A stretch of DNA of 43,101 nucleotides from an uncultured Candidatus Marinamargulisbacteria bacterium. GTDB taxonomy: Bacteria; Margulisbacteria; Marinamargulisbacteria; GCA-2716485; CAXFGY01. This document shows positions 22,049 to 42,734 of this stretch, piece by piece. The translations under genes and the position numbers were made by a program. Position 1 is the first letter of the stretch; every line of letters begins with the position of its first letter. The notes under the pieces were generated by a model. The model ran no database searches, had not been told where the DNA came from, and was given only the letters and a program-made list of their open reading frames with translations. The stretch spans positions 1 through 43,101 of the forward strand of contig CAXFGY010000001.1 in NCBI GenBank assembly GCA_964002605.1. Reading direction: 5' to 3'.

Positions 22049-22202
22049 ATTTTAATTTGTTTGTGCATAACTGCAACTTCAACTAATTTCAGGGTAGCAT
22101 TTTGTTAACTTGGAATCAAATGAATTTATTTAAATGTATTATAGTTATTCTCTCTCTGATGAGTTATTTAGGACAGTCCCATATTACATATTATTTTCTG
22201 TT

Positions 22203-22805: not shown

Positions 22806-22926
22806 ATTTATTAAGTGTACAAGAAATTAAATGTATAAGAAACTTATATTTTAAATAAGTTACAAATATAATAAATCATTTTTTACAAAGATAACTTTGT
22901 TTATTAATATTGCTGATTATTAAAAC

Positions 22927-23589
22927 TTAAAAAACAATACCAAATTGGCAATATGCATTAAGAAGCAATCTGTCAGTAAGATCAAAACTACCTTTATAAT
23001 TTTCACCTAAAGATTTATCAGCTCCCATAATATTATTCAATTTAAACAAATATCCATACTGTAAACCCAAACGAAAACTAATTAACTCTGCAAGCAAAGC
23101 CGAATACCCCAAGGATAAAGCAAGATTTCCAAGGTTCACACTAGATTTTGTATACTCTATGTCTTTTGGAAAACCTAAGAAACCAGTTGTTTCCCAGTTT
23201 TTTTCTGTAATTTTTACCCTCATATAGTCAAAACCTGGACCAAAATAAAACCCTTTAAAGACTTTTGCAAAATACAAAAAATATGACACTCCAAATGAAT
23301 TTATATCACACTCGACACGACTAGGCTGAAGAGAAAACAAATTTGCATCAGTCAAAAAAACACCTTCTGCTTTTATTTCCAACCCCGCGCCATTAAGATT
23401 TTTTTCATATGATAAAGAAAAGCCACCTCCACCTAATTCTAAAGCATCAAGCTCATTATTGTGATCCCCAAGTTTTGATGAAAGAGCGCCAAGACCAAGA
23501 CCAAAGTCAACTAAACCGGTTTTTGCATAACTTAAACACAATAAGCAAAAAAAGATAATTACAGTGACCATAAGTTTTATTTGAATCAA
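22927..23589 (-). CDS. Small outer-membrane beta-barrel protein (220 aa)
   Basis: Signal peptide ending ...LSYA|KT, Gly/aromatic-rich alternating strands, and a C-terminal ...YCQFGIVF. Confidence 0.6.
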   Translation of the reverse strand: MIQIKLMVTVIIFFCLLCLSYAKTGLVDFGLGLGALSSKLGDHNNELDALELGGGGFSLSYEKNLNGAGLEIKAEGVFLTDANLFSLQPSRVECDINSFGVSYFLYFAKVFKGFYFGPGFDYMRVKITEKNWETTGFLGFPKDIEYTKSSVNLGNLALSLGYSALLAELISFRLGLQYGYLFKLNNIMGADKSLGENYKGSFDLTDRLLLNAYCQFGIVF

Positions 23590-23748
23590 ATTATACTCCT
23601 AAAATTATTAAAATTTTAATACACATTTTATCATATGAATTATGTATTTAATAAAAAAAGGTTATGATATGATATAGTCAAGCTTTAATATAAATAAATT
23701 ATTACTTCAAATTAATAAATACTAAAAAACTAAAATAGGAGAAAATTA

Positions 23749-25212
23749 ATGAATAAAAAACAAACTATAATACTACTATTGCTTTCACTTACAGGCTTTT
23801 TCAATGCAATTTATCTAACTATACTAAAGCACTTTTCTTTGCCTGGTTGTACAGGTGCAGGATGTGATGCAGTACTATCTAGTGACTACTCGACTTGGTT
23901 TAACATTCCTATCTCTGTTTTTGGCATTATTGCTTTTTTGACATTATCAATACGCCTATACTGCAGCTACAAATCAACTGATACAAGATCTGTATTACCT
24001 ACTACGTTTATTATTGCACTAATCGGAACAATCGTTCATCTACATTTAACTTTAGTTCAAGCATTTAAATTACAGCAATGGTGTATATTCTGTACGCTAT
24101 CTGCCCTTCTTATGACAACGATTATGATACTTTCTGTTATTTTTAATGATAGCAAAAACACACTCTTAATTTATACCTCTTATAACGATGTCTCCCTTTT
24201 TAAAATACTCCCCAGTGTAACAATTACAATATTTTGTGTTTATTTTGCTAGTATTTTCTATAGCGTTCTCCCATCTCAATCAAGTTCACCTGCAAACCCG
24301 TCCGTTATTGCAACATTTGACAATCAAAAAATCAAACTAACTGAACTAGATGAACAACTCGGCGTAAAAATCACCCGCTTAAAACGTAATGTTTATAATG
24401 AACGACTTAGAAAGTTACAAGAACTTCTTCTTGCGCATGATGCGAAAAAACAAGGGATATCAGTAACCCAATTAAAAAAACTTATAATCAAAAAAGAGAC
24501 CCTTGTATCTTCTCAAGAAGTTCAACAATTTTATACAGATCATAAAGAAAACATGGGTGGGAAATCATTTGACGAAATGAAAAACCGAATTAAACAATAT
24601 TTAACAAATGAAAAGGAAACAATTACGATAGAAAAATATATACAAGGTTTAAAAACAAAATATCAATTTTATGAATCTATGCCACGCCCTTTTCAATTTA
24701 AAATACGTAATAACCCTGATCAGATTGTGGCAATTGGACCTAAAAATGCCAAACTTAAAATTACTGCATTTAGTGATTTTACATGTCCACACTGTAAAAA
24801 AACCCATCATAAGCTAGATACACTATATCAAAAATATCCCAATGACATTCAACTTATTTTTCGCCAATATCCATTATCTAATGAATCTCGTCCAAAAGCC
24901 TTAGCTGCATTATGTGCAGATCAACAAAACCAATACCTTGCATACTCTAATAAACTTTATGCGATGTTTAAACCCCTTAATCAAACACAGTTAACCGAGT
25001 ATGCCCGTCAACTTAACCTTAACATTCCCGCATTTCAATTATGTTTAAATGCCTCTCGAACAAAACAAATACTCAATCAAGAAATTACAGAAGCGAAACG
25101 ATTATCCGTTTTATCAACCCCAACATTGTTTTTTAATGGGGAATATATTAATTATTTTCCAAATGATTATGAGCTAAACCAAATACTAAAAACTGCAAAA
25201 ATTATAAACTAA
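23749..25212 (+). CDS. VKOR-domain / DsbA-like thioredoxin fusion oxidoreductase
   Basis: N-terminal four-TM VKOR-like domain with Cys pairs (LPGCTGAGCDAV and WCIFC). A charged linker follows, then a C-terminal thioredoxin fold with FSDFTCPHCKK. Confidence 0.75.
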   Translation: MNKKQTIILLLLSLTGFFNAIYLTILKHFSLPGCTGAGCDAVLSSDYSTWFNIPISVFGIIAFLTLSIRLYCSYKSTDTRSVLPTTFIIALIGTIVHLHLTLVQAFKLQQWCIFCTLSALLMTTIMILSVIFNDSKNTLLIYTSYNDVSLFKILPSVTITIFCVYFASIFYSVLPSQSSSPANPSVIATFDNQKIKLTELDEQLGVKITRLKRNVYNERLRKLQELLLAHDAKKQGISVTQLKKLIIKKETLVSSQEVQQFYTDHKENMGGKSFDEMKNRIKQYLTNEKETITIEKYIQGLKTKYQFYESMPRPFQFKIRNNPDQIVAIGPKNAKLKITAFSDFTCPHCKKTHHKLDTLYQKYPNDIQLIFRQYPLSNESRPKALAALCADQQNQYLAYSNKLYAMFKPLNQTQLTEYARQLNLNIPAFQLCLNASRTKQILNQEITEAKRLSVLSTPTLFFNGEYINYFPNDYELNQILKTAKIIN

Positions 25213-25287
25213 TTTACTTCTAAACCAGATTGCAAAACTTAATGTAACTTGGACTCTTGCCTATCTCATGTTATAACTGTGCCTAAT

Positions 25288-27141
25288 ATGAATACTAAAA
25301 CAGATGTTATTGTAGTCGGTGCTGGGCATGCTGGCATAGAGGCGGCTCTTGCTGCAGCACGACTTGGATGTTCTGTCATTGTACTGACCAAAACACGCGA
25401 TACTATCGGCTTAATGCCCTGTAACCCATCAATTGGAGGTCCTGCAAAAGGTCAAATTGTTGGTGAAATTGATGCCTTAGGTGGTGAAATGGGTCGTTGT
25501 GCCGATGAAACACATATTCAACTTAAAGTACTTAACCGATCTAGAGGACCTGCGGTTCATTGTTTACGTTCTCAAAATGACAAAATAGACTATGCAGCAT
25601 ATATGAATAATATACTACATTCTCATCCTAATATCACGATCTTTGAAATAGAAGTATATGGACTACTCATTGAAAATAACACAATACATGGTATTGTGAC
25701 CGCAACCGGTACGGAGTATTATGCCCCTGCGGTTATTTTAACAACAGGGACCTTTTTAAACGGCTTAATGCATACAGGAATGACGCACCAATCCGGTGGG
25801 CGAGTAAATGAGTTTTCTGCCGAAAAACTTTCCCAAAGCTTACTGCGTTACTTTAAACTAGGGCGCTTAAAAACAGGAACCCCACCCCGTCTCCATCGCG
25901 AATCGATTGATTATGATCAACTTAAAGTTCAACCTGGAGATCCTGAATGCTTACGATTTTCATTTCGAACCCCTTACAACAATCGCTACTTAGATCAAGT
26001 TAACTGCCACCTTACTTATACAACGCCAGACTCACATCAAATTATTTTAAAAAATCTAGATAAATCACCACTTTACACAAATGTCATCCAAGGGTCTGGT
26101 CCACGTTATTGCCCATCTATTGAAGATAAAGTCGTTCGATTTAAAGATAAAGACCAACACCATATTTTTATCGAACCAGAAGGCCGGAATAACATTGAAG
26201 TGTATCCCCAAGGCCTCAACACGTCTTTACCCGCACATGTTCAAGATCAATTTTTAAAAACAATGCCTGGTCTCCGTGATGTAAAAATCATTCGTCCAGG
26301 TTATGCCGTTGAATATGATTTTGTCTTTCCTAACCAACTCCACCCAACACTAGAAACGCGTGCACTATCAGGGTTATTTTTAGCAGGTCAAATTAATGGA
26401 ACTTCAGGGTATGAAGAAGCCGCTGGACAAGGTCTTATCGCCGGTATTAATGCGGGTCTTGCTGTTCAAAACCGTCCATCATTTATTCTAACCCGTGAAA
26501 ACTCTTTTATAGGAACCATGATCGATGACCTAATTCATAAAAATATTTATGAACCGTACAGGATGCTAACTTCTCGTTCTGAATATCGGCTTTTACTACG
26601 ACAAGATAACGCTCCTTCTCGCTTAGGTCCTGCCGCATTTGATTTAGGTCTTATTACTGCAAAAGAATTTAAACATATCCAGGCGGAAACAACCGCCATT
26701 AAAGCGCTTCATCAACAATGGAAAAAACAATCTTGTTCAGCGGAACTACAACAATCACTCGGGTTAAATCAAAAATGCCCCCTTAGCCATGTTATTAAAC
26801 GACCTGATGTCAATATCGATACTATTATGACAGAAATGAATAGTCCTACCTCACAGTTAGACACCATCAAAAAAGCACTCGTTATCAGTAAATATGAAGG
26901 ATACATTCAAAAGCAAGAAGAGGATATACAAAAAATTAAATCATTAGAACAAAAAAAATTACCGATCAATATTAACTTTGATCTTATTCCAGGGCTTAAG
27001 CAAGAAAGTCGAGAAAAATTTAAACACTACTTACCTAAAACAATTTATGAGGCAAAACAAATTGCAGGCATTAATCCAGCAGATATTTTTGTACTCGTTA
27101 CATTTATCGAAAAATATGGTGTTACCACCTGTAATGGATAA
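25288..27141 (+). CDS. mnmG: tRNA uridine 5-carboxymethylaminomethyl modification enzyme MnmG (GidA)
   Basis: FAD-binding VIVVGAGHAGIEAALAAARLG, GPRYCPSIEDK and AGQINGTSGYEEAAGQG. I prefer the ATG at 25288 over the TTG at 25249 given in the track. Confidence 0.95.
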   Translation: MNTKTDVIVVGAGHAGIEAALAAARLGCSVIVLTKTRDTIGLMPCNPSIGGPAKGQIVGEIDALGGEMGRCADETHIQLKVLNRSRGPAVHCLRSQNDKIDYAAYMNNILHSHPNITIFEIEVYGLLIENNTIHGIVTATGTEYYAPAVILTTGTFLNGLMHTGMTHQSGGRVNEFSAEKLSQSLLRYFKLGRLKTGTPPRLHRESIDYDQLKVQPGDPECLRFSFRTPYNNRYLDQVNCHLTYTTPDSHQIILKNLDKSPLYTNVIQGSGPRYCPSIEDKVVRFKDKDQHHIFIEPEGRNNIEVYPQGLNTSLPAHVQDQFLKTMPGLRDVKIIRPGYAVEYDFVFPNQLHPTLETRALSGLFLAGQINGTSGYEEAAGQGLIAGINAGLAVQNRPSFILTRENSFIGTMIDDLIHKNIYEPYRMLTSRSEYRLLLRQDNAPSRLGPAAFDLGLITAKEFKHIQAETTAIKALHQQWKKQSCSAELQQSLGLNQKCPLSHVIKRPDVNIDTIMTEMNSPTSQLDTIKKALVISKYEGYIQKQEEDIQKIKSLEQKKLPININFDLIPGLKQESREKFKHYLPKTIYEAKQIAGINPADIFVLVTFIEKYGVTTCNG

Positions 27142-27709
27142 GCCCCCCAAAAAAATAAATACATATCAGCCCGCTATTTCTCGCTATATAGAGTCACTTA
27201 AACGCTATAATCAACATACCAATATTTACTCTTCCAAAGCCTATGATCATTTACCCTTTCATATTGAAAACTGCCAAGAATTAGCCACTATTATTGGTAA
27301 TAATAAACATACAATTATGGATATGGGGTCTGGCTCAGGTTTACCTGCTATTATTTTAGCAATTTGTTTACCTAATTCATCTGTATTTGCAATTGAATCA
27401 AAAAGTCGAAAAACCCGATTTTTAAGCCAAATAAAAGCCGATTTAAACTTAATTAACTTAACAGTTATTAATGATGATATTAATTTAATAATTCGTACAA
27501 AAACAGTAACGCCATCAATTATTACAGCAAAAGCCTTTGCACCTTATGACAAAGTCATTCAATTAAGTCAAAAAATAGCAAAACTAGATACATCTCTATA
27601 TATTCCAATAAGTAGAAATCAATACCAAAGTTTATCCCAACAAGCCAATACAAAATATTCGTTTATAAACCCAAAAACAGATCATTATTTCTTACATTAT
27701 CAATTTTAA
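27134..27709 (+). CDS. rsmG: 16S rRNA (guanine527-N7)-methyltransferase RsmG (GidB)
   Basis: SAM motif IMDMGSGSGLPAIILAI. I prefer the ATG at 27134 (ATGGATAA overlapping the mnmG stop) over the track start at 26978, which would overlap mnmG by 164 nt. Confidence 0.82.
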   Translation: MDKPPKKINTYQPAISRYIESLKRYNQHTNIYSSKAYDHLPFHIENCQELATIIGNNKHTIMDMGSGSGLPAIILAICLPNSSVFAIESKSRKTRFLSQIKADLNLINLTVINDDINLIIRTKTVTPSIITAKAFAPYDKVIQLSQKIAKLDTSLYIPISRNQYQSLSQQANTKYSFINPKTDHYFLHYQF

Positions 27710-27863
27710 AATCATCCATATCACCCATTTCAACAATCATATACCCCCTGTTAAATATAGCTTAATAATAATTGATCTTAAGCGATTGCAAGACTAACAC
27801 TTTTATTATAGCGCTTATTTATAATTATAAAACCCAACTAATCAAGTCAGTTTTTCACGGCAA

Positions 27864-28188
27864 TTACCTTAAGGTAAAGGGATAATCAAAGATATTTGTG
27901 AATAACAAGTTATCCAGATAAAAATGTGAATAAATTGTTAAATCACGTGTATAAAAAAGGATAACCTTAAAGTTATTATTTTATATCCACAGATTATTAA
28001 AACTATTTTTACACTATTTACGGAAAAAGTAGGTACTTTTGCACATATCCACACACTCTATTACTATTAACTATATTATTTAATTATTTATATAAACTTA
28101 TCTTAATAGAAATTCTTATTCTTATTTTAAACTACTATAAAAAAAATAAAGATTAGTTTATTATATATTAAGAGGGTATCAAAATATA
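27864..28188. other. Candidate oriC: DnaA-box cluster plus AT-rich unwinding region upstream of dnaN
   Basis: There are five 1-mismatch DnaA boxes: TGTGAATAA at 27897 and 27925, TTATCCAGA at 27910, and ATATCCACA at 27983 and 28045. A perfect 14-bp palindrome TTACCTTAAGGTAA lies at 27864..27877. About 130 bp of nearly pure A/T lies at 28060..28188. Confidence 0.6.
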
Positions 28189-29361
28189 ATGAAATTTAAA
28201 TGTAATAGTATAGATCTTCAAAAAGCAATTAATATTGTAGAAAAAGCCATTGCAGTCCGATCTGCATTGCCTATTTTAGAGAATATTTACATGGATTTAT
28301 CTGATAATCAACTCATATTAAGAGGCAATGATTTAGAGTTGGGAATTGAATATAGAATGCCAATAAATAGCATTGAAGAACCAGGAACTATTTTAACAAA
28401 ATCTAAAACAATGAGTAGCATTATTGCGAAGCTTCCTAATCAGTCATTAAATTTAACAGTAAAAGAAGAAAAAATAAAAATTACAGGTAATAATGCAGAT
28501 TTTACAATTCATAGTGAAAACTCAGAGGATTATCCCGTATTCCCCAGTATTGAATCTGGACAATTAGTTCATTTTACTGTTGCTGAGTTACGTCAATTAA
28601 TTCAACATACTGTTTTTTCTGTTTCATTTGATGAAACTAAAAAATTCTTAAATGGGATTTTAATTAAAAATCAAGATAAAAAGTTAGTGTTTGTAGCAAC
28701 AGATGGATATCGATTAGCATTAAAAAAGTCTAAGACCACAACGATTGACACTAATTTTGAAGTCATTGCCCCGTATAAAGCCGTCTATGAATTAAATAAA
28801 ATTTTACAAGGTGTTGCTGATGACCAGGAAATTCAAATGAGTGTTTCTGAAAAACAAGTAGCTTTTAAGATGGATCAATTGGTACTTATTTCTAGGGTAA
28901 TTCAAGGTCAATTTCCTGATTATAATCAAGTTATTCCTGATTCCTCGGAATATAGGTATAATATATCTAAAGACGAGTTATTGATTGCTGCAGAACGAGC
29001 AGCAATTATTGCTTCTTCATCTAATAATGTTGTTAAGTTATTATTTGATAATAATCAGTTAGTAATCACCGCCTCTGCCCCTGCATTAGGAGACTTTAAG
29101 GAGTCTTTACAGACAAAAGAAGGGAGTTGCTCTCACTCTGCAAAAATAGCATTAAATGTTCGCTTAATTCTTGATGTAATTAAAATTATAGATACTGATG
29201 AAGTATCTTTCTTATTTAATAATGAATTAAGCCCATGTCAATTAATTCCCCTTACTGATAATTCTTTTACTTATATTATTATGCCGATTAGAACAAGTGA
29301 TTTTCAAACAACCCCTGAAACAGTAAATGTTGAGTCTGAAGTTGAGGTCACATCTACTTAA
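28189..29361 (+). CDS. dnaN: DNA polymerase III beta sliding clamp
   Basis: N-terminus MKFKCNSIDLQKAINIVEKAIAVRSALPILENIYM, ATDGYRLA and QGQFPDY. Position is upstream of recF. Confidence 0.95.
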   Translation: MKFKCNSIDLQKAINIVEKAIAVRSALPILENIYMDLSDNQLILRGNDLELGIEYRMPINSIEEPGTILTKSKTMSSIIAKLPNQSLNLTVKEEKIKITGNNADFTIHSENSEDYPVFPSIESGQLVHFTVAELRQLIQHTVFSVSFDETKKFLNGILIKNQDKKLVFVATDGYRLALKKSKTTTIDTNFEVIAPYKAVYELNKILQGVADDQEIQMSVSEKQVAFKMDQLVLISRVIQGQFPDYNQVIPDSSEYRYNISKDELLIAAERAAIIASSSNNVVKLLFDNNQLVITASAPALGDFKESLQTKEGSCSHSAKIALNVRLILDVIKIIDTDEVSFLFNNELSPCQLIPLTDNSFTYIIMPIRTSDFQTTPETVNVESEVEVTST

Positions 29362-29368
29362 CGTATAA

Positions 29369-30469
29369 ATGTTAAAGCGGTACTTTGTTAAGTCGTACCG
29401 AAACTTACAAGAAACGGTTTTATTAATTGAAGATAACCGTTCAGTTGTCGTTTGGGGAAATAATAACCAGGGGAAAACTAATTTTTTAGAGTCGTTATTT
29501 ACAGTGATCAATGGGTTTTCACCAGTACAGTCTGATCGAAATTTATTAATTTGTAGCGATTCAGAAGAGGGGGTTATTGGTATTGAGTTTGAATCTACTA
29601 TTAATGGAGAAATAAGTACAAGTAATAATCAGCTCTATATTAAGTTAACTCGTAATGGTCAGCGATATATGACGTTTAATCGTCAGAATATGCTTTCTTT
29701 TTTACCTTTAAAAAAATGGATAGAATGTTATTTTTTAAATGCAGATATTATCCGTCTATTTCAAGATAGTGCAGAAGGTCGTCGAAAAACACTTGATGAA
29801 TGTTGTTGTATTTATGATAAACGGTATAGGCAGATTTTAAAAAAATATCGAGCAACATTAAAACAAAAAAATAAAAGCCTTAAATCAGGGGCTGACTTTT
29901 CACTGATTACAACCTTTAATCAACAGTTAGCAATATATGCACAAGAGTTACTTATTGTTAGGCATCGTGTTATTCATCAGCTAACTCCTCTTTTAACTCG
30001 ATTTTTAAAAAGTAACATCAATGAGTCCATTGAGTTGGTAGCAATTCATTATTGTGAAAAAAAGAGGTTTGATGGAGAGCTATCTCATTATTCAGAGTGG
30101 TTATATGCGGAGTTACAATCTCAATTTCAAAAAGAATCCTTGGTTGGATATTCTTTGCTGGGACCTCATCGAGATGATTTTGAAATTTATATCAATAATC
30201 AATTATTATTTACATCATTTTCACGTGGTATAAACCGTATTGTTGCACTTGGGTTTAATCTTGCAATCATTGAGTTAAAAAAACAGTTTTTAAATACAGT
30301 TTTATTATTAGATGATGTTTTTGCAGAGTTAGATGATACTCATAAACAACGATTAATTTCTGAAATGGAAACAAAGGCACAGTTAATTTATGCCACAGTC
30401 ATGGAATCAGATTGTAAGTTTTTTAAAAACCCTTTAGTTTATGAAGTTAAACAAGGGGAATTAGTATGA
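29369..30469 (+). CDS. recF: DNA replication and repair protein RecF
   Basis: RecF-type Walker A GNNNQGKTNFLESL, signature region GPHRDDF, and Walker B LLLDDVFAELD. Confidence 0.92.
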   Translation: MLKRYFVKSYRNLQETVLLIEDNRSVVVWGNNNQGKTNFLESLFTVINGFSPVQSDRNLLICSDSEEGVIGIEFESTINGEISTSNNQLYIKLTRNGQRYMTFNRQNMLSFLPLKKWIECYFLNADIIRLFQDSAEGRRKTLDECCCIYDKRYRQILKKYRATLKQKNKSLKSGADFSLITTFNQQLAIYAQELLIVRHRVIHQLTPLLTRFLKSNINESIELVAIHYCEKKRFDGELSHYSEWLYAELQSQFQKESLVGYSLLGPHRDDFEIYINNQLLFTSFSRGINRIVALGFNLAIIELKKQFLNTVLLLDDVFAELDDTHKQRLISEMETKAQLIYATVMESDCKFFKNPLVYEVKQGELV

Positions 30470-30933
30470 AATCATTAGGTTATATTGTGGATTCATTTTC
30501 AGGGCAAGCACTTAAAGAAGTAAAGATAAGCCATTATATTAAATCAATCATTATTCCATTATGGGGGACTATTTTAGGAAAATTAGCATTAGAGTTTCAG
30601 TTTGAGCATGTCAGATATCGGCAATTGTATATATCAACAGGGAATCCAATTTGGAAATCAGAAATAAAATATCATGAGAAAATGATTGTAGAGCGTTTAA
30701 ATAAACAGCTACCTAAATCACTTTATTTTAAAGGAATTCGTGTTTTTTATAAACAACAAACTACAGAGGCAATTGACCAAGAAAAGCAAGTAAAAAAAAG
30801 TCGGCATCAGCATTTTAAAGATCAGATTCAACAAGAAAATAAAAGGAAGCAACAATTGGGAGCTACTCCGTGTCTTTCCTGCTCTTCAGTGTTAACTGTA
30901 GATAAAGTTTGTGTCTTTTGTAGACTTCAGTAA
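30466..30933 (+). CDS. DUF721-like protein with C-terminal Cys4 zinc-ribbon
   Basis: Canonical position after recF with an ATGA overlap. C-terminal CLSC...x11...CVFC. Confidence 0.65.
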   Translation: MKSLGYIVDSFSGQALKEVKISHYIKSIIIPLWGTILGKLALEFQFEHVRYRQLYISTGNPIWKSEIKYHEKMIVERLNKQLPKSLYFKGIRVFYKQQTTEAIDQEKQVKKSRHQHFKDQIQQENKRKQQLGATPCLSCSSVLTVDKVCVFCRLQ

Positions 30934-31037
30934 AGTGATGATGGTAAGATAAACTCCCTATTAGCACAAAAAAGTGCACATTCTGATTTAAAGTAGTGAG
31001 TTAGAAGTTTTTAATTAAAATTTATTAAGGAGGAAAT

Positions 31038-31121
31038 ATGGGTAGTTTAATCAAAAAGCGTCGTAAAAAAATGAGAAAGCATAAATATAAAAAATACGGC
31101 AAAAAAATGAAAAAGAAATAA
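31038..31121 (+). CDS. bS22-like small basic ribosomal peptide (27 aa), absent from the ORF track
   Basis: AAGGAGG lies 6-7 nt upstream of the ATG. The product MGSLIKKRRKKMRKHKYKKYGKKMKKK matches the MGS(V/L)IKKRRKRM.K.K signature of bS22/AURKAIP1-like peptides. Confidence 0.7.
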   Translation: MGSLIKKRRKKMRKHKYKKYGKKMKKK

Positions 31122-31280
31122 TTTTAAACTTATTTTACGTCCTTAGCAAAGAATTAATGTAGCTAAATATATGAAATTTCCGATCACAATGTAGACCTAG
31201 AATACTGTAGAATTAATTTTTTTATATCGTTTTTTTGTCTTGTTTTTTTAGATAATGAAAGCATATATTTTTTAGTATAT

Positions 31281-31421
31281 GGCTCTGTTGCGAAATGTTT
31301 AATCTTCACAATTTTCACCTTGATTATGTAGCGTAGCACCACTTCCTCAGGCGATAAATTGCAAACCTTGTGCCTTTGGCGACATCGCAATCGATCGAAT
31401 TTTCTATTTTGTGACAGTCCT
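31281..31421 (+). mobile_element. Copy B of the ~141-nt TIR element, flanked by TATAT/TATAT
   Basis: Ends are GGCTCTGTTGCGAAATG...CTATTTTGTGACAGTCCT. The 5-bp direct duplication is at 31276..31280 and 31422..31426. ORF 31184..31390(-) is an artefact of the repeat. Confidence 0.85.
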
Positions 31422-31457
31422 TATATGTACATATTAAATAACTATTTTGATGAATTT

Positions 31458-31598
31458 GGTATTGTCTTAAAATGACTAATCTACACAGTTTTGGTTTTTG
31501 TTATAGTGCACGGTACCATCGAATCAAGGAATAAATTATATATCTTAGACCTTTAGAGATATCGTAATAGATCAAATTTTTTTATTTTACACCACGCC
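31458..31598 (+). repeat. Copy B' of the repeat family (degenerate, about 65-70% identical)
   Basis: GGTATTGTCTTAAAATGACTAATCTACACAGTTTT matches GGCTCTGTCGCGAAAATGCCTAAGCTTTACAATTTT. GGAATAAATTATATATCTTAGACCTTT matches GGCGATAAATTGCAAATCTGATGCGTTT. The 3' 44 nt match copy C at 31/44. Confidence 0.7.
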
Positions 31599-31943
31599 AC
31601 ATAATGTGTTTTTGTTTTATTGCTAAACATTGTTGAAACCATCAATGGCGCTAAACCGACTAAGATTGTTGAACCCGCAGTCGTACCAAACCTAAAACAC
31701 GAATTACAAGTTCTATCCAAAACGACCTCCTACTGTACTAAACTCAGCAGTATCTTGTAACCAATAATTTAATTTTGTTTTTATTTTTATTAATATCATT
31801 TTTTAACTTTTATATTATATTATCGATATTTAGAGAAAATGTTGCATGCATTTTTTCATACTTCTATTTTGTAATAAGCTCAATTTGTAAAACCTGACTA
31901 GGTGATACTGTTCAACATAACAGCAACATTAATTTTTATTATT

Positions 31944-32086
31944 GGCTCTGTCGCGAAAATGCCTAAGCTTTACAATTTTTACCTTCATTATGTCGTTCTG
32001 AGCCACTGCTTCAGGCGATAAATTGCAAATCTGATGCGTTTGGCGACATCGTAATCGATCGGTTTTTTCTATTTTGCGACAGGCCT
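31944..32086 (+). mobile_element. Copy C of the ~141-nt TIR element, flanked by TTATT/TTATT (best-preserved copy)
   Basis: The 5' GGC-T-CTGTCGC-G-AAAAT pairs with the 3' ATTTT-GCGACAG-GCC(T), giving 15 bp with two bulges. The duplication is at 31939..31943 and 32087..32091. The copy lies about 100 nt upstream of the 527-aa ORF. Confidence 0.88.
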
Positions 32087-32183
32087 TTATTTGTAATAGC
32101 CTTAAATTTATTTACCCTCTCTTTAGTGTTTAATCCACCAAAACTTTGGGTAGTTAACTTCATGTCATATCGGTTAAGAAAAC

Positions 32184-33767
32184 ATGGAGTTTACCAAAAT
32201 GAAAATAGGTAGCCTTACGAGTTCAAGTACTTATTCAAAAGTGATAAGTAATCAGTTAGATACTAGTAGAAAAGTCAAACAAAAAGAAAATAGTTATGTA
32301 AGTAATGGTGAAATTAATCAAACCATTATTTTAAAAAAAATTAATGAATTACATCTTCAATTTTCTTCTGATTTTTTAGTGATTAAGAGTAGTTCAATTG
32401 AAGAATCATTGAAATACTTTTTTAATACTATTTATAATACTCAAAAAGATCAGCAGCATACAAATCAACGGTTAAGTGATAATCAATTGATTGCCGTAAA
32501 GTCACTTTATGATTTATTGCAAGAATTACGTCAATTTAACTGTACGTGTGCGGAGGATATTTTTACAGGGTATGTCGCTGTTTTTGGTGGTTGGTCAAGA
32601 AATTTGAGATATAATTATTGTGAAAATGAGAAAGGTCAGACACTAATATCAGGGTATAAATACATTGATAACGATATAAACTGTACAGCGTTAACTTCTT
32701 ATTTAAAAGATGTATTAGCATATGAAAAATTAAAGTTAGAGACGCAACAGTCTGATTGTAATAACAGTAGAATTAATCATCACTCTGCTTCTAAGATTCA
32801 AAATTTAATTTCTATAACCCAAGAAATACACCCTAAAGTTAATCATAGAAAGTCATTTAAATGTGTTCCAAAAAATAATTCTTCCATTTCTATTTCCTTT
32901 TTTATTAGGCGGTGTAATAGTATGCCAGATTCATTTTTAGAGTCGATGATTTATAATACATATCGAAAAGATAAAGCACCTGAGGTTAGGCCGTCTACAG
33001 CAATAAGTGTCTTAAAAGGACCAAATGGAAAGCCAATTGTTAGTAATAAAGGAAATTCTATTGCAATCGGTTTACTTGGAGATGCATTTCCTTTTAAAAA
33101 ATCAGGTCACTTATGTGACTGGAGTGAACAAGGTGAGTTTGTGTTTGATAATACAGCAGAAATGGTTACGGCGCAAAAATGTGATATTTGGAGTGGCCCA
33201 ATTCCGCTTCACACTTATAATGGTGTCATTGATCGACATCAATTTCAATTTGATATGGAAAAACGTGCAGCGGTTTCACAAGAGACTCATATTGAAGGAA
33301 AGTGGTTAGACAAAGCCTTATTGTATGAAAAGATGCTTAATCAAGCAAATAAAGCGTTAGGTTTTAAGCCGATGGGATCCTATCATAAAACTGGGAAGGG
33401 GCGCTGTTGGGGGATACCTAAAAATAAATATAGTAATTATGTTAAACTATTTAACCAATTTGGCGTTATTCCTCACAATGAAGCCTTTATGATTCATGAT
33501 TTACGAGTTCCTTTTCGAATAGGAATTAATACCCATTCAAAAACAGCATTTAAAAACTCTTTAAAGCTGTATATTAATACAGTTCGTTTTCTAAAGCAAA
33601 AAAGATACTATGATCTAGCAAAAAAAATAACATTAGTCATTTACAATAATCAAACAGGGGAAGTAAAGCACGTTAATCCAGAGCATCTGTATCAACTATA
33701 CTTATTGACGCCGGATTGTTATACAATAGATCATCAATATATTCATCCAGAAGATCGGTTCACTTAA
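32184..33767 (+). CDS. Orphan 527-aa protein, no recognisable domain
   Basis: Long uninterrupted ORF with a Ser/Thr-rich N-terminus (MKIGSLTSSSTYSKVISNQLDTS), about 13 Cys, and no TM segment or signal peptide. An alternative start at 32199 has GGAG 9 nt upstream. Confidence 0.6.
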   Translation: MEFTKMKIGSLTSSSTYSKVISNQLDTSRKVKQKENSYVSNGEINQTIILKKINELHLQFSSDFLVIKSSSIEESLKYFFNTIYNTQKDQQHTNQRLSDNQLIAVKSLYDLLQELRQFNCTCAEDIFTGYVAVFGGWSRNLRYNYCENEKGQTLISGYKYIDNDINCTALTSYLKDVLAYEKLKLETQQSDCNNSRINHHSASKIQNLISITQEIHPKVNHRKSFKCVPKNNSSISISFFIRRCNSMPDSFLESMIYNTYRKDKAPEVRPSTAISVLKGPNGKPIVSNKGNSIAIGLLGDAFPFKKSGHLCDWSEQGEFVFDNTAEMVTAQKCDIWSGPIPLHTYNGVIDRHQFQFDMEKRAAVSQETHIEGKWLDKALLYEKMLNQANKALGFKPMGSYHKTGKGRCWGIPKNKYSNYVKLFNQFGVIPHNEAFMIHDLRVPFRIGINTHSKTAFKNSLKLYINTVRFLKQKRYYDLAKKITLVIYNNQTGEVKHVNPEHLYQLYLLTPDCYTIDHQYIHPEDRFT

Positions 33768-33835
33768 AAGAGATATCATTTTTTATTTTTTATCAGTCTT
33801 GTATGGATAGTTATGGTAAAATAGAGTAAAGAGAA

Positions 33836-35050
33836 ATGACTAAAAATAATAATGCCAAACGATCTAAAAAACGTAAAGTAATACGGATTAAAAACTTATT
33901 GCAACAAGAGGTTAAACCACAGCCTATTTCTCCTAAACTGACAGAAAAGGATAAAGATGTCTCTATTATAGATGAGCAACTATCTTATGATCAAATCTTA
34001 ACAAAGCATCACACTCAAGCAAAAGGAGAAATTGAACTTTTAAGACAAAATACTTTAGCTGAGTTAGAGCAAGTTCGTAAAAACCGGTTAAATGATATAG
34101 AGAATGAAGTTCAAGTTAAGTTACAACAAGGCTATGAAGATGGATACAGTAAAGGATATCAAGAGGGACAAACGAAGTTAGAGGGGGTGGCTAATGAGTT
34201 TTTAGGAATGCTTAATCAAGCGGTGGAAGAAAAAAACAACATTTTAAATTCAGCAGGTCAAGACTTACTCAATTTAAGTTTTAAGGTAGCCGAAAAAATT
34301 ATTCAAACTCAGTTAAATCAAAATTCAACTATATTTAAAAATATATTAGAAGAGGCGATTAGTCAGGTGACAGAAAAAGATAAAGTCTTAATTAGAGTAA
34401 GTCAGGCAGATTTTGAAGCGATTCAAAGTTATCGTTCTGAACTTGAAATAAAGTTTAAAGATATCAAGCAGTTGGATATCACTGCAGATTCAGATATTGC
34501 TGTTGGGGGATGCATTATAGAAACAAAGCTAGGATATATTGACTCTAGCATAGCAACAAAAAAAGAATTAATTCAACGGGCTTTTACAACGCTCTATCAT
34601 GAAATTGATCATCCAGATACAGCCGCTAACCACCAAAAAACAGATACAGATACGCTTTCTGACCCCTCCCTTGCCAATACGCCAGCTACTGAGTTGGATG
34701 ACAACACGGTGTTTGAAGAATCAGAGCGAACTGAAACAGAAGATACGATTAGTGATAGTGCAATGGATGAGGTGATTTCTGAAGAAGGGACGTTAGTTGA
34801 ACCGGACGACATGATAGTGGATAGTGCAATGGATGAGGTTATTTCTGAAGAAGAGACGTTAATTGAATCGGATGACATGATAGCGGATAGTGCAATGGAT
34901 GAGGTGATTTCTGAAGAAGAGACGTTAATTGAACCGGATGACATGATAGCGGATAGTGCAATAGATGAGGTGGTTTCCGAAGAAGGTGCGCTCACTGAAG
35001 AGGATGATGTTAAAATAGAGGAACTGGATGATTTGTCGTTTGAGGATTAA
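33836..35050 (+). CDS. fliH: FliH/SctL-like export-ATPase regulator with acidic repeat C-terminal extension
   Basis: FliH core QQGYEDGYSKGYQEGQTK...LNLSFKVAEKIIQ...VLIRVSQADFEAI...DIAVGGCIIETKLGYIDSSIATK, directly upstream of the ATPase gene. Confidence 0.75.
   Translation: MTKNNNAKRSKKRKVIRIKNLLQQEVKPQPISPKLTEKDKDVSIIDEQLSYDQILTKHHTQAKGEIELLRQNTLAELEQVRKNRLNDIENEVQVKLQQGYEDGYSKGYQEGQTKLEGVANEFLGMLNQAVEEKNNILNSAGQDLLNLSFKVAEKIIQTQLNQNSTIFKNILEEAISQVTEKDKVLIRVSQADFEAIQSYRSELEIKFKDIKQLDITADSDIAVGGCIIETKLGYIDSSIATKKELIQRAFTTLYHEIDHPDTAANHQKTDTDTLSDPSLANTPATELDDNTVFEESERTETEDTISDSAMDEVISEEGTLVEPDDMIVDSAMDEVISEEETLIESDDMIADSAMDEVISEEETLIEPDDMIADSAIDEVVSEEGALTEEDDVKIEELDDLSFED
34754..35010 (+). 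repeat. About 3.9 tandem copies of a 66-nt (22-aa) in-frame acidic repeat inside fliH
   Basis: The unit GATAGTGCAATGGATGAGGTGATTTCTGAAGAAG... starts at 34754, 34820, 34886 and 34952. The encoded unit is DSAMDEVISEE(G/E)TL(V/I)E(P/S)DDMI(V/A). Confidence 0.9.
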
Positions 35051-35074
35051 TTTAATACAACATAGGTGTTTTAA

Positions 35075-36385
35075 GTGACATTATTGCAGTATAGCCATTA
35101 TATTAAACAGCTTGAAAAACTAAATTTATTACAAATTGTAGGTAAAGTAGTTCAAGTAGTCGGTTTAGTTGTTGAAGCCCAAGTTCAAGGGGTTTCTATT
35201 GGAGAGCTATGTAAAATTCAAATCAGTGCTAAACGATATATTTTATCTGAAGTCGTTGGATTTAAAGAAGCGTGTGTATTGTTGATGCCTTTGGGGAGTT
35301 TGGCCGGAATAAAACCAGGAAGTCGTATTTATGCAACTGGACATCCTATTCGAGTAAAAGTAGGGCCTCAGCTTTTGGGGCGTGTACTTGATGGACTAGG
35401 GAATCCTATGGATAATCATGGTGAATTAGAGTTTGATATGTACTATAACATTGATCAAGATCCCCCTGATCCAGTGAAGCGACCACGTATTTCACAGGTA
35501 CTAAAAACAGGTGTCAAAGCAATTGACGGTGTTCTTACTGTAGGCAAAGGACAACGAATTGGAATATTTGCTGGATCTGGGGTTGGAAAAAGTACGCTAA
35601 TGGGAATGTTAGCACGCAACTGTGAGGCAGATATTAACGTCATTAGTTTAGTAGGCGAGCGGGGGCGTGAAGTAAAAGATTTTATTGAAGAATCATTGGG
35701 AGAAGAAGGCTTAAAAAAATCTGTTGTTATTTGTGCAACATCGGACCAGCCACCAGTGATTCGGTTAAAAGCGGCAATGGTTGGTACGGCGATTGCTGAA
35801 TACTTTAGGGATCAAGGTAAAAATGTATTGTTTATGATGGATTCGGTCACTCGATTTGCAATGGCACAACGCGAAATTGGATTAGCGACAGGGGAGCCCC
35901 CTACAACAAAAGGATATACGCCGTCAGTATTTGCAATGTTGCCAAGGTTAATGGAGAGAGCTGGAACATCTGATAAAGGAAGTATAACAGCGATATATAC
36001 AGTTTTAGTTGAAGGAGATGATACAGATGAACCCATTGCGGATGCAACTCGCGGTATTTTAGATGGCCATATTATGTTATCTCGAGGGTTAGCGGCTAAA
36101 AATCATTATCCATGTATTGAAATTGGACATAGTGTAAGCCGGTTATTTCCTGTAATCACAACAAAATCACATCAGCAATCAGTGGGTAAGTTACGTGAAG
36201 TTTTAGCTCGGTATTACGAAGCAGAAGATTTAATTAATATTGGCGCTTATGTTAAGGGGAGTAATCCTAAAATTGATGAATCTATTGAAAAAATTGATGA
36301 TGTTAATCAGTTTCTGAAGCAAGGGACTTTCGATGTTGAGCCCTTTAATAATACAGTTCAGACATTAGAGGCTTTGTTTTATTAA
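35075..36385 (+). CDS. fliI: FliI/SctN-family type III export ATPase
   Basis: Walker A GSGVGKSTLMGM, Walker B VLFMMDSVTRFA, and LLGRVLDGLGNPMD. GTG start with AGGTG upstream. Confidence 0.92.
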   Translation: MTLLQYSHYIKQLEKLNLLQIVGKVVQVVGLVVEAQVQGVSIGELCKIQISAKRYILSEVVGFKEACVLLMPLGSLAGIKPGSRIYATGHPIRVKVGPQLLGRVLDGLGNPMDNHGELEFDMYYNIDQDPPDPVKRPRISQVLKTGVKAIDGVLTVGKGQRIGIFAGSGVGKSTLMGMLARNCEADINVISLVGERGREVKDFIEESLGEEGLKKSVVICATSDQPPVIRLKAAMVGTAIAEYFRDQGKNVLFMMDSVTRFAMAQREIGLATGEPPTTKGYTPSVFAMLPRLMERAGTSDKGSITAIYTVLVEGDDTDEPIADATRGILDGHIMLSRGLAAKNHYPCIEIGHSVSRLFPVITTKSHQQSVGKLREVLARYYEAEDLINIGAYVKGSNPKIDESIEKIDDVNQFLKQGTFDVEPFNNTVQTLEALFY

Positions 36386-36399
36386 AAAGTGTTTAGATT

Positions 36400-36879
36400 A
36401 TGAGTAAAGCAAGAAAATCTAAAAAGTTTAAGTATCAGTTATATAATGTATTAAAAGTTAGAAAAATTAGAGAGCGTCAAGAGCAAGACCGATTTAATAC
36501 AGCAAAGAAAAAGGTAATCAAAGAAAAACAAAAAGAAGATGAACTTAAATTAGATCAAACACTACATTATGAGGAATTATTATCCATGATGGGAGATGAG
36601 TTGCCCGACATGAATGTGATTCAAATGAGAAAGCTACATCTTGAACGGTTAAAACAAAAAGTGGATGAACAAGTGGAAGTTCGTAAAACCGCAGAAAGTG
36701 AACGTGATTTACAGCGAGATGTTTTAACAGAAGCGGTTAAAAAGAAAAAAGTAATCGAAAAAGATGAGGAAAAAACAAAAAAAAGCTGGAAAAAACTAAT
36801 GGATAAAGAAAATGGGAAGTTTTTAGATGAAATCGCAGTCATTGGGTTTGATAAGAAAAAAAAAGAGGGGAGTCAATGA
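36400..36879 (+). CDS. fliJ: FliJ/SctO-like coiled-coil stalk protein
   Basis: 159 aa, highly charged, predicted all-helical coiled coil, in the canonical position after fliI. There is no diagnostic motif, so the call is by context. Confidence 0.5.
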   Translation: MSKARKSKKFKYQLYNVLKVRKIRERQEQDRFNTAKKKVIKEKQKEDELKLDQTLHYEELLSMMGDELPDMNVIQMRKLHLERLKQKVDEQVEVRKTAESERDLQRDVLTEAVKKKKVIEKDEEKTKKSWKKLMDKENGKFLDEIAVIGFDKKKKEGSQ

Positions 36880-36987
36880 TTTGTTAATGTTTTTTGAGTT
36901 GTAAATAGCGGTCTTTATTATTATAATAATAGTATTAATTTGTAGTATTTTTTTATAGTTAGTTTTTTTTTACAAGGAGTTTATTTT

Positions 36988-38175
36988 ATGAAAAAAATAT
37001 ATTTATTTATTTTTGTACTGTTAGTTAACACCATATCGCATGGTGCTGAAAAGTATCAATTAGAAAGTTTTGAAAACAATACTAAAGTGAATGCATCAAC
37101 TGGGTTAACAGTGGTTAATGACCAGTATTATTTGCAGACGGCTATAAATCCAAATCTACGATTTATGGGTGCTGAGTTAGGATTGGGTTTAAATTTACAT
37201 ATTCCATTAGAAGGCGGTTATGAAAAGCCAGACGATTTGGAGTTTGTGACGATACGATATATTGGCTATCGCTATAAAGATACGTTTGGTATTAAATGGG
37301 GTCGTTTATCTAATATCACGTTTGGATATGGATTATTAATGGATAATTACGATTCTGGTAATACAGGGTCTTTAGCGTTTAGTAATAAAAAAGCAGGTGT
37401 TTTAGGGTTTGTTGCAGTTAATAATTTACGTAGTGATGTGATGTTGACATATAGTAAAGTTCAGGCAGGACGATTATCATACCGGTTGCCCGTTGTTCCT
37501 TTAATTGGGACACCTATTGTTTTTGGTATTAATGCAATTCGTGACGAAGATGGCGTTGAGGGAGGTCTGCGGCAAGCTCAAATGGGTTATAGTGTTGATG
37601 CCGGAGTGCCAATCGCAGGTCCGTTATTAACACTTTACAGTGAAATAGCAGAGTTAAAATCTGTGGGTAAGGTAGATGTTCTGCCTTTGGATGACTCTGA
37701 TCACAAGCGTGGATTCGCTTTTGGGGGAAAAGGAAACATTTTTAATATGATTAGTTATTTAGCGGAATATCGTTATGTTCAGAAAGACTTTATTCCAGGT
37801 TATTTTAATAGTACGTATGAAAGCACAGAAACACCAGATCCTTTGGGTAAAGATCAACATGGATTTGTTGCCGGCATCTATACTCATTTAATGGATGATT
37901 ATGTAAAAGCAGGCGCTACTTATGAGTCTATTACTGAAACAACAATCGCATCAATTGGATGGAAAGAGATTTCGAAGACTGTGGGTGTTATTAATTACAC
38001 TATTCCCCCTCAAGGACGTGATGCGGCAATATTAGATGCAAGTGTATTGTATCTCACAGGCGGTATTTTTGATTATGTTATTCACTTTAAACGTCAATAT
38101 TATAAGGATCAGCCAGAAGAAGATTCTTATGCGTTTAGTGTAAGAGTAAACTTAGATTCTTTTTTACCATTTTAA
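36988..38175 (+). CDS. Outer-membrane beta-barrel protein (395 aa), unknown function
   Basis: Signal peptide MKKIYLFIFVLLVNTISHGA|EK, Gly/Tyr-rich alternating strands, and a C-terminal ...NLDSFLPF. Confidence 0.6.
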   Translation: MKKIYLFIFVLLVNTISHGAEKYQLESFENNTKVNASTGLTVVNDQYYLQTAINPNLRFMGAELGLGLNLHIPLEGGYEKPDDLEFVTIRYIGYRYKDTFGIKWGRLSNITFGYGLLMDNYDSGNTGSLAFSNKKAGVLGFVAVNNLRSDVMLTYSKVQAGRLSYRLPVVPLIGTPIVFGINAIRDEDGVEGGLRQAQMGYSVDAGVPIAGPLLTLYSEIAELKSVGKVDVLPLDDSDHKRGFAFGGKGNIFNMISYLAEYRYVQKDFIPGYFNSTYESTETPDPLGKDQHGFVAGIYTHLMDDYVKAGATYESITETTIASIGWKEISKTVGVINYTIPPQGRDAAILDASVLYLTGGIFDYVIHFKRQYYKDQPEEDSYAFSVRVNLDSFLPF

Positions 38176-38223
38176 GTTAAGTATATAGTTTTTTTATTGC
38201 ATTAACAGAACAGTAATGAATCA

Positions 38224-39684
38224 TTGGTAAGTATTAAACAAATTATATTTGGAATAATATATTTTTTTCCAGTTTTTCTTTTCTCTGAGCCGTTGGACTA
38301 TGAACCAGGCACATTATTGATTAAATTAAAGCAAACGTCTACAACAGAAGTTGCAAATTCTAGTTTAAAAAATAATGAGATTAAAAAAGCAATTTCCGCA
38401 TTAAATCGAAAATGGGAGGCAAAAGAGAAAGACTTAGTATTGAAAAATATTATTACGACAATTTATTCGCGCTTGGTCAACTTTAATTTACAAGATAATC
38501 AAGAGGTTGTTAAAGTTTTATCGTTTCCTAGAATGTTTGATTTAGACGAAATTAAACAGGATTATCAAGCTTCAGGTTTGGTCACTGAAGTAGAATATAA
38601 TTATTATGTTTATAAGCAACAACAATCTTTTCCAATTTCTTCTTTTCAATATCATCTGATGCATTACTCTTTAAAAAGCACTCCAGTTTTGCAAAGTGAT
38701 GTTCAAATTCCAGTTGCTATTATTGATACTGGGGTTGATATTACCCATCCTAACTTGAGAGATGCAATTTATATCAACAGTCAAGAAGTTCCATTTAATA
38801 ATATTGACGATGATAATAATGGGTATATTGATGATTACCGGGGAATTTCATTTTTAGGGTATTCAGCTCAAGAAGCCTATTCCGTTGACGTTACTGATAC
38901 CCATGGGCATGGAACACATATTGCAGGCATTATAGCGGCGCAATCAGTAAATAGTGATGGCGTTTGGGGTCTTAATCCACAGGCAAAAATTATGCCAGTG
39001 AAATTTATGGATAGTACGGGTAAAGGAACACAGTTAGATGCAGCAATGGCAATTCGATATGCAGTAGATATGGGAGCAAAAGTGATTAATTGTAGTTGGG
39101 GGTATTTTAAAAAAACATCCGTTTTAGAAGATGCAATTAATTATGCAGTTAAAAAAGGCGTTATTATTGTTAGTGCAATGGGCAATAGTAATACCTATAT
39201 TCCAGAGTATCCAAGCGCTTTTGAATCGGTTTTATCTGTAGGTGCTGTTTCTCCAGTACTGCAACGATCGGAATATTCTAATTATGGGAGTCATTTAGAT
39301 TTCGTTACTTTTGGGAACGATATTTATAGTACATTACCAGGAAAAAGCTATGGGGCATTATCGGGAACGTCTCAAGCTACTGCAATTGTTTCAGGGGTGG
39401 TATCTCGTTTACTATCCTTGTATCCAGCAATGACCTATTTAGGTGTATATGAAATGCTTAAAAACAATGCGTTAGATTTAGGAGCAGAAGAATATGATCA
39501 GTACAATGGATATGGCTTGGTGCAAGTCGATGGAATGCTATTAGAGCTAAATGAGACGGTACCAAGTTATAATATTAGTGTTATTTCAGAGACATCAACT
39601 AATACAACGCCCGTGCCATATTTAAAGTATATAGGTATTGTTTTGGGCGTAGTAACTGCTATTTTAGTTGGAATAGCACTATAA
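38224..39684 (+). CDS. Subtilisin-like serine protease (peptidase S8) with N-terminal propeptide and C-terminal TM anchor
   Basis: Catalytic triad motifs AIIDTGVD, HGHGTHIAGI and LSGTSQATAIVSG. C-terminal hydrophobic helix IGIVLGVVTAILVGIAL. TTG start. Confidence 0.9.
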   Translation: MVSIKQIIFGIIYFFPVFLFSEPLDYEPGTLLIKLKQTSTTEVANSSLKNNEIKKAISALNRKWEAKEKDLVLKNIITTIYSRLVNFNLQDNQEVVKVLSFPRMFDLDEIKQDYQASGLVTEVEYNYYVYKQQQSFPISSFQYHLMHYSLKSTPVLQSDVQIPVAIIDTGVDITHPNLRDAIYINSQEVPFNNIDDDNNGYIDDYRGISFLGYSAQEAYSVDVTDTHGHGTHIAGIIAAQSVNSDGVWGLNPQAKIMPVKFMDSTGKGTQLDAAMAIRYAVDMGAKVINCSWGYFKKTSVLEDAINYAVKKGVIIVSAMGNSNTYIPEYPSAFESVLSVGAVSPVLQRSEYSNYGSHLDFVTFGNDIYSTLPGKSYGALSGTSQATAIVSGVVSRLLSLYPAMTYLGVYEMLKNNALDLGAEEYDQYNGYGLVQVDGMLLELNETVPSYNISVISETSTNTTPVPYLKYIGIVLGVVTAILVGIAL

Positions 39685-39742
39685 TAGTCAGCGAAGATTT
39701 AATGTGAGGGATATTTTTTAATTACAACAGGGTATGTTTAAT

Positions 39743-39884
39743 AGGATTGTCGCAAAATAGACAAATTCAATCGATTTTGATGTCCCAAAAGGCATAAGAT
39801 TTGCAATTTATCGCATAAAGCAGAGGGACAGAGCGATATAACGAAGGTAAAAATTGTGAAGATTAGGCATTTCGCGACAGAGCC
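39743..39884 (-). mobile_element. Copy D of the ~141-nt TIR element (inverted), flanked by TTAAT/TTAAT, inserted in the 3' end of rdgB
   Basis: The reverse complement aligns end to end with copy C. The duplication is at 39738..39742 and 39885..39889. The element supplies the last six codons (ALSRNA) and the stop of rdgB. Confidence 0.88.
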
Positions 39885-40468: not shown

Positions 40469-40484
40469 TTTTTCTAAATATAAT

Positions 40485-42650: not shown

Positions 42651-42734
42651 ATCTATATGGTACCCAAATCATTATTTTTTTACACTATACAGTAGTGTTA
42701 ATAATAGGTAAATTTTTGTATACTGATGTAAGTT

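Follow-up and report, generated by a model that had tools for sequence, protein, structure and literature searches.

The DNA analysed here is a chromosomal stretch of 43,101 nt (the window, by which we mean the whole stretch) around the replication origin of an uncultured marine bacterium. Its GC content is low (~33%). It carries, in this order, dnaA (20521-21852, - strand), ruvA, a gene for a VKOR-DsbA fusion, mnmG (gidA), gidB and dnaN (28189, + strand), and dnaN is followed by recF, dciA, an open reading frame (ORF) of 527 aa, fliH, fliI and fliJ. A repeat of ~142 bp occurs several times between the genes of the window. We conclude with high confidence that these repeats form a new, previously undescribed MITE (miniature inverted-repeat transposable element) family, non-coding and non-autonomous. 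A preliminary description of the window had proposed a non-autonomous element with terminal inverted repeats, mobilised in trans. This proposal was supported by a fixed flanking duplication, by empty sites in relatives and by dispersal beyond the window; that the element was moved in trans is what we infer.

Copies and anatomy of the 142-bp element

The window was scanned by nhmmer with a profile hidden Markov model made from aligned copies. The results showed exactly six full-length matches (E-values from 1e-33 to 1e-42; Table 1), and independent repeat finding yielded the same set except for copy E. The preliminary description had listed three direct copies (B, B' and C) and further copies starting at 213, 5126 (-) and 39743 (-), and all of them were recovered by the profile to within 1 to 2 nt. 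An additional, internally deleted copy suspected at 31822-31879 found no support. No + strand match was reported there by nhmmer at E ≤ 10, the sole match nearby was a minus-strand fragment at 31891-31923 (E 0.31), and the alignments of this segment were gappy and no better than those of the opposite strand.

Table 1. Coordinates of the MITE copies, the unoccupied target site and the expanded spacer in the window.
Feature	Position	Strand	Remarks
MITE copy A, 142 nt	213-354	+	nhmmer E 1.3e-42; no duplication (flanks TATTA / ATCGT)
MITE copy E, 143 nt	5126-5268	-	nhmmer E 3.5e-33; ~65% identity, diverged
MITE copy B, 141 nt	31281-31421	+	nhmmer E 8.5e-41; perfect TATAT duplication at 31276-31280 and 31422-31426
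MITE copy B', 142 nt	31458-31599	+	nhmmer E 7.3e-33; no duplication (AATTT / CATAA)
MITE copy C, 143 nt	31944-32086	+	nhmmer E 4.8e-42; perfect TTATT duplication at 31939-31943 and 32087-32091
MITE copy D, 142 nt	39743-39884	-	nhmmer E 2.9e-41; perfect TTAAT duplication (+ strand) at 39738-39742 and 39885-39889
Empty target site (a single AAGTT)	27907-27911		gidB-dnaN spacer; orthologous position in L035 filled
Expanded intergenic spacer, 1062 nt, with copies B, B' and C	31122-32183		aligned with L035 (window 30880-32260)

Pairwise identity among the window copies was 61-84%. Copy B' was 61-65% identical to the others in the window and its termini were degraded; it is an old, decayed copy. As for their positions, copy E was sited between the genes for tRNA-Tyr and tRNA-Ala, copy D lay between the convergent subtilase and Ham1/RdgB genes, and the ATG of the 527-aa ORF was found 97 nt downstream of copy C. 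The insertion of copy A was also present on the metagenome contig L045 (labels of this form denote the loci or contigs compared with the window).

Full copies were 137-145 nt long. The left end reads GGCTCTGTCGCGAAAT and the right end TTTTGCGACAG(T/G)CC(C/T); the termini can also be written GGCTCTGTCGCG...CGCGACAG(K)CC(Y), in inverted orientation. The terminal inverted repeats, put at ~15 bp and called imperfect in the preliminary description, were indeed imperfect and ~16 bp long, with 13 of 16 bases equal between GGCTCTGTCGCGAAAT and the reverse-complemented right end GGGACTGTCGCAAAAY. In an alignment of 39 copies, both ends were strongly conserved and subfamilies were discernible. The first ~40 nt of the element recur in inverted form at ~70-108, and positions 2-108 form a long palindrome that matches its own reverse complement. 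After the palindrome comes a T-rich tail of ~35 nt that bears the outer right terminus, a second copy of the right terminus.

The same termini were also found on other elements: an internal-deletion form of 86 nt (L014:594-679), a fully palindromic form of 108 nt (L025:3615-3718) and an element of 161 nt with an unrelated core (L043:5859-6019), in addition to a solitary terminus (L027:1772-1787). Elements that are shorter or have a different core are expected if one transposase recognises the ends, and the occurrence of the same termini with other interiors shows the termini to be the functional unit. At L043:6776-6793, a complete MITE with its AATTT duplication is followed by a repeat of the element's first 13 nt, so that AATTTGGCTCTGTTGCGA stands on both sides. 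A tandem copy or an aberrant event could have left this repeat behind. The ORF adjoining it is no transposase but the C terminus of a nuclease-like protein, which has a cysteine cluster.

Target-site duplication, dispersal and occupancy of orthologous sites

The sequences flanking the element were compared for 37 full copies, non-redundant and taken from four independent assemblies, with the element boundaries set by the profile coordinates. A perfect 5-bp direct repeat was present directly outside the termini in 27 of the 37 copies (73%), against 0.47 perfect 5-mers expected by chance when flanks were re-paired between copies. This consistent duplication was sharply specific for 5 bp and for a single boundary: lengths of 3, 4, 6 and 7 bp gave 5, 2, 1 and 0 perfect cases, respectively, and at most one perfect case was obtained when either boundary was shifted by 1 to 3 nt. 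The duplicated 5-mers were 91% A/T and had no fixed sequence, in flanks of ~70-75% A/T. In the window, the duplications of copies B, C and D were read directly from the flanks and were exactly those of the preliminary description, and the duplication of copy E was equal in 4 of its 5 bases (in element orientation, ATCTA and ATCTC).

Fixed, A/T-rich 5-bp repeats are what a cut staggered by 5 bp leaves at targets rich in A/T. In the mechanism that we propose, a transposase supplied in trans, presumably of the DDE type, would bind the element termini, and the element would be joined to a target that is rich in A/T and has been cut with a stagger of 5 bp. The 5-bp direct duplication would then result from gap repair.

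Two copies without duplications had similar flanks. A segment of ~100 nt beside copy A (355-460) was 71% identical to L001:19295-19394, beside the partial copy F (L001:19153-19261), the two segments sitting on opposite sides of the element. This likeness may reflect recombination between copies, or it may be another small repeat.

The repeat was not confined to the window. When species-representative genomes were scanned with an exact pattern, two copies were found in the metagenome-assembled genome (MAG) 'bacterium isolate SP317', a name for which a literature search returned no paper. Among metagenome contigs, a 30-nt 5' pattern matched 39 contigs of the assemblies MDSW01 and MDTG01, and a profile search of these contigs revealed 55 full or partial copies. 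Extension of the source contig rightwards added one more full copy and one partial copy, for a count of 8 copies (7 full, 1 partial) in ~54 kb of the same genome. The density was 139 copies/Mb in the window and ~75 extra copies/Mb, beyond the selecting copy, on the other contigs; the high genomic load suggested in the preliminary description was thus borne out. Among viral contigs, the one match, in L006, was a coincidence of 21 nt within a phage gene rich in GC, and the core pattern gave zero matches. BLAST of the consensus against plasmids produced only two chance matches of 20 nt, and a literature search with the terminal strings returned only unrelated primers. The family makes up ~2% of the genome region represented by the window. 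Its copies explain spurious calls of small ORFs (50 aa in copy C and 82 aa in copy A) as well as contig breaks inside copies. L040:4904-5620 held an unrelated repeat, a tandem array whose period is ~69 nt, and a related unit occurred at L027:6140-6254; this is a second repeat type in the same organism group.

Orthologous sites differed in occupancy between relatives. The 10.7-kb contig L035 was syntenic with window positions 23245-34623 at 72-82% nt identity, and its gidB-dnaN spacer held a MITE flanked by TAGTT on both sides. At the orthologous position, the window was empty (Table 1), and L035 minus the element and one 5-mer aligned with the window across the junction. The unoccupied 5-mer directly abuts a DnaA-like box at 27910; the L035 MITE lies directly beside the equivalent box. 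Either a gain in L035 or a precise loss in the window lineage implies mobility. Absences in the reverse direction were found as well. L046 (~74% nt identity) had no copy at the 3' end of the Ham1 gene and none between xerC and an HD-domain gene, two positions that carry a copy in the window genome; L035 lacked the copies of the B-C cluster (see below); and the more distant L050 to L052 (MnmG 73-77% identical in amino acids, 38 kb) had zero copies. A comparison of L042 with L014 as a second empty site was left unused, the left flank being not alignable. Because occupancy differs between close relatives, the family can be used as a lineage-specific insertion marker for the population genomics of this uncultured marine bacterium.

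Other insertions were shared. L008 and L027 had an insertion at the same site, with the L027 copy cut to its first 53 nt, and L009 and L040 shared another, this pair being 96.5% identical. Some insertions are therefore older than the splits of these relatives and decayed afterwards. In the window genome, the family looks old and is probably no longer mobile, given the divergence among its copies and the lack of a transposase nearby. We suggest that insertions would have built up in intergenic DNA, often a few nucleotides from gene 3' ends, within one uncultured marine lineage.

Non-coding nature, possible relatives and the search for a transposase

All of the full copies (40/40) were intergenic or clipped gene 3' ends by just 16-19 nt, and many were located within a few nucleotides of a gene 3' end. 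In the overlapping cases, the element gave the gene its stop codon; for example, the 5' end of copy D provides the Ham1 gene with its 7 final codons and its stop codon. The orientation of the copies with respect to the neighbouring genes was mixed. No long ORF spanned any copy, and stop codons were present in nearly all six frames of the real copies. The consensus has one open reverse frame, which was not kept by the real copies, and a coding element was rejected.

A location close to gene 3' ends could also be expected of structured non-coding RNA genes or of cis-regulatory hairpins (terminators, attenuators or small RNAs) that are kept by selection and spread by duplication. A long hairpin could be folded in most copies, with 81% of cells paired in a 36-pair model and single-copy z-scores reaching -3 to -5. 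However, the RNAalifold consensus of the 39 copies retained only 15 weak pairs, and the changes in the 36-pair hairpin mostly broke or wobbled pairs. Covariation was no better than in shuffles, 35 of 500 of which reached the observed score and 66 of 500 the observed count of double-change pairs. According to an Rfam scan of the whole window at the gathering threshold and a sensitive scan of 30900-32200, only two tRNAs were present; the spacer that holds the cluster gave no match, and the element itself had none even at E ≤ 1. No Rfam match was obtained in L009 and L040 either. Within the cluster, no terminator-like sites were found and promoter-like sites were not in excess. Mixed orientation also argues against such a role.

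The high identity of the L009/L040 pair might be taken as a sign of selection. The two shared copies are part of a block of ~480 nt (L009:2053-2532 and its L040 orthologue) that is 90-98% identical, in contigs that are otherwise 50-88% identical. This block consists of the shared MITE and the 3' end of the gene for a pyridine-nucleotide disulfide oxidoreductase; the reading frame of this gene extends into the MITE by 17 codons. Since the high identity spans ~300 nt of the neighbouring gene, it suggests recent recombination and not selection on the element. Nor does the RNA explanation account for the 5-bp duplications of fixed length or for the empty site at the orthologous position, and we consider it very unlikely.

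The features described above are those of a MITE, an ordinary kind of bacterial mobile element. MITEs are small (~30-300 bp) and carry neither a transposase nor another conserved ORF; bacterial examples are Correia (Neisseria), ERIC/IRU (enterobacteria), RUP (Streptococcus pneumoniae) and Nezha (cyanobacteria). Like these, the present family consists of non-coding, largely palindromic units of ~100-160 bp with terminal inverted repeats and a duplication of fixed length, and it has tens to hundreds of dispersed intergenic copies near gene ends, with subfamilies and internal-deletion derivatives. Unlike these, it shows no sequence similarity to Correia, ERIC, RUP or Nezha, it has no Rfam family, and its terminal strings occur in no relevant paper. 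Its duplication is 5 bp and A/T rich, whereas that of Correia, ERIC and RUP is typically a TA dinucleotide. The family is one more well-documented case, and thinking on how such elements work is unchanged by it.

The palindrome at positions 2-108 and the abundance in intergenic DNA of a low-GC genome also recall repetitive extragenic palindromic sequences (REPs) and the bacterial interspersed mosaic elements built from them, or the Rickettsia palindromic elements (RPEs). Such repeats would have been spread by a REP-associated tyrosine transposase (RAYT, of the IS200/IS605 type) or by an unknown route, with no target duplication. REPs are palindromic units of 20-40 nt that are associated with RAYTs (Y1 transposases) and make no target duplication, and RPEs are typically found in frame inside protein-coding genes. 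The present unit is 142 nt long, its fixed 5-bp duplication is perfect in 73% of copies, no copy lies within a long ORF, and a Y1 transposase was not found in Pfam/NCBIfam scans of the window ORFs. A REP- or RPE-like origin is therefore hardly credible.

Within the MITE interpretation, a narrower form would be a Tn3-family-derived miniature element (TIME) moved by a Tn3-type TnpA. The outer 12 nt of the present element, GG(C/G)(T/A)CTGTCGC, are equal to the Tn3 end GGGGTCTGACGC, whose occurrence on Escherichia coli plasmids was checked, at 9 of 12 positions. This likeness is weak, being equalled over 16 nt by 136-316 of 5000 shuffles (3-6%) before correction for the many insertion sequence (IS) families. 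Both Tn3-family transposons and TIMEs have A/T-rich DNA as their target and duplicate 5 bp, sometimes 6 bp (PMC4133298), and the 5-bp, 91% A/T duplications found here agree with this. TIMEs, non-autonomous like the present 142-nt family, are 262 bp long, have 38-bp repeats homologous to Tn3-family ends, and are known from Pseudomonas and relatives, usually with one to a few copies per genome, which was attributed to target immunity (PMC4133298). The inverted repeat of the present family is ~16 bp and not 38 bp, and it has neither the GGGG start nor the inner TAAG. Moreover, its ~75-140 copies/Mb, with three copies within 800 bp, contrast with the few TIMEs per genome, and no Tn3-type transposase or resolvase was present in any locus examined. 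On balance, a TIME origin seems unlikely to us.

Derivation from the families ISH3, IS1634 or IS701 was also considered and rejected. These families make duplications of 4-6 bp, A/T rich in the case of IS1634, which have been read as target attack from one helix face; IS701 makes exactly 4 bp, and ISH3 was then known only from archaea (PMC2266710). The termini GGCTCTGTCGCG fit none of their published signatures (ISH3 'CRGT', IS1634 'C-----YT' and IS701 '---YACT-Y--YR'; PMC2266710), and only the duplication length fits.

Several points weigh against the MITE interpretation. First, a source of transposase was not encountered. In agreement with the preliminary description, no transposase domain was detected in the long ORFs of the window by Pfam/NCBIfam scans (the gene for a 721-aa RelA/SpoT protein was judged from precomputed Pfam hits), nor in the called genes of the contigs extended on both sides. 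A fuzzy search for solitary termini in all loci found no longer element bounded by the termini, and the ORFs near partial or solo termini on metagenome contigs did not look transposase-like by eye, those beside partial copies being of the HolB, acetyl-CoA-synthetase and AddB types. Second, 10 of the 37 copies had no perfect duplication, although 5 of these matched at 4 of 5 positions. Third, each sequence collection was scanned once, with exact patterns only. Finally, the relatives used for the empty sites are only 72-82% identical to the window and the left flank aligns imperfectly, and the difference at 27907-27911 may result from a precise loss in the window lineage instead of a gain in L035.

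All-against-all BLAST after masking of the MITEs likewise revealed no parent element. The autonomous partner was found neither in the ~330 kb retrieved nor by the pattern scans, which used exact patterns. IS copies assemble poorly in metagenomes. The termini, together with the 5-bp duplication, provide a precise search image for the transposase. Because they fit no IS-family signature that was checked, the termini and the strict A/T-rich 5-bp duplication could be traces left by a group of transposases not described so far, in a marine lineage with hardly any samples that may belong to the Margulisiibacteriota. Alternatively, a Tn3-type miniature element might have escaped target immunity at ~100 copies/Mb, or some copies might have been co-opted, such as the L035 copy beside the DnaA box in the origin spacer or the copies giving stop codons and C-terminal tails. 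We regard it as improbable that any of these applies.

The B-C cluster and other features of the window

Copies B, B' and C share one intergenic spacer (Table 1). In L035, the orthologous spacer, which separates the 527-aa ORF from the small ORF following dciA, was only ~170 nt long and held no copy. Copies B and C were 81% identical and had different intact duplications, and B' was ~62% identical to both. Therefore, the cluster arose by three insertions, independent of each other and differing in age, in a single spacer that tolerates them; local tandem duplication as the source of the three copies was ruled out by the differing duplications and ages. The 344 nt between B' and C matched nothing else in the data compared. 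The preliminary description had considered this spot to be a hot spot or a boundary of acquired DNA. This idea is supported only in part. The spacer is ~170 nt and copy-free in L035 and 1062 nt with three insertions in the window. The 527-aa ORF (32184-33767, +), located upstream of fliH and without a Pfam/NCBIfam match, was missing from between dciA and fliH in L050, a more distant relative, but had an orthologue in L035, where the spacer is MITE free; the MITEs are thus not markers of its acquisition.

Just downstream of dciA, at 31038-31121 (+), we found a conserved, very basic ORF of 27 codons, MGSLIKKRRKKMRKHKYKKYGKKMKKK, with a Shine-Dalgarno sequence. It was 92% conserved in L035 at the nucleotide level, and its NCBIfam match to ribosomal protein bS22 was weak and below threshold (21 bits versus a cut-off of 34). 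Its small size keeps it out of ORF lists. This stretch is therefore partly coding, and the true spacer starts at 31122.

Two clusters of DnaA boxes were present in the window. One, with three perfect TTATCCACA boxes, was located upstream of dnaA (21906-22070), and the other, with five one-mismatch boxes, in the gidB-dnaN spacer (27897-28053). Together with a minimum of the cumulative GC skew near 28 kb, these clusters indicate that the origin is probably bipartite. The block of ruvA, a 220-aa ORF, the VKOR-DsbA gene, gidA and gidB (22203-27709) was inverted relative to L050:7697-12423. In L050, gidB abuts dnaA and ruvA abuts dnaN, which points to an inversion around the origin.

With respect to the host, Tara Oceans scaffolds were 99.9-100% identical to the parts of the window that they overlapped (25075-43101). 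MnmG/GidA was 58-62% identical to proteins of 'Candidatus Margulisiibacteriota' and equally to those of MAGs labelled Actinobacteria or Rickettsiales, and the identity of Ham1 to a protein of 'Ca. Marinamargulisbacteria' was 43%. Even the nearest of the named homologues are too far removed to place the host in a phylum, and they give only faint hints of Margulisiibacteriota.

The interior of fliH (34714-34977, +) contained at least three tandem repeats of 66 nt (22 codons) that were 81-88% identical, and FliH was 404 aa long in the window versus 331 aa in L050. An ORF of 1764 aa (13108-18402, +) had only a weak match, to the phage distal tail protein family TIGR02217, and its L050 orthologue matched DUF2460. 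It adjoins an amidase gene, an arrangement that was conserved in relatives.

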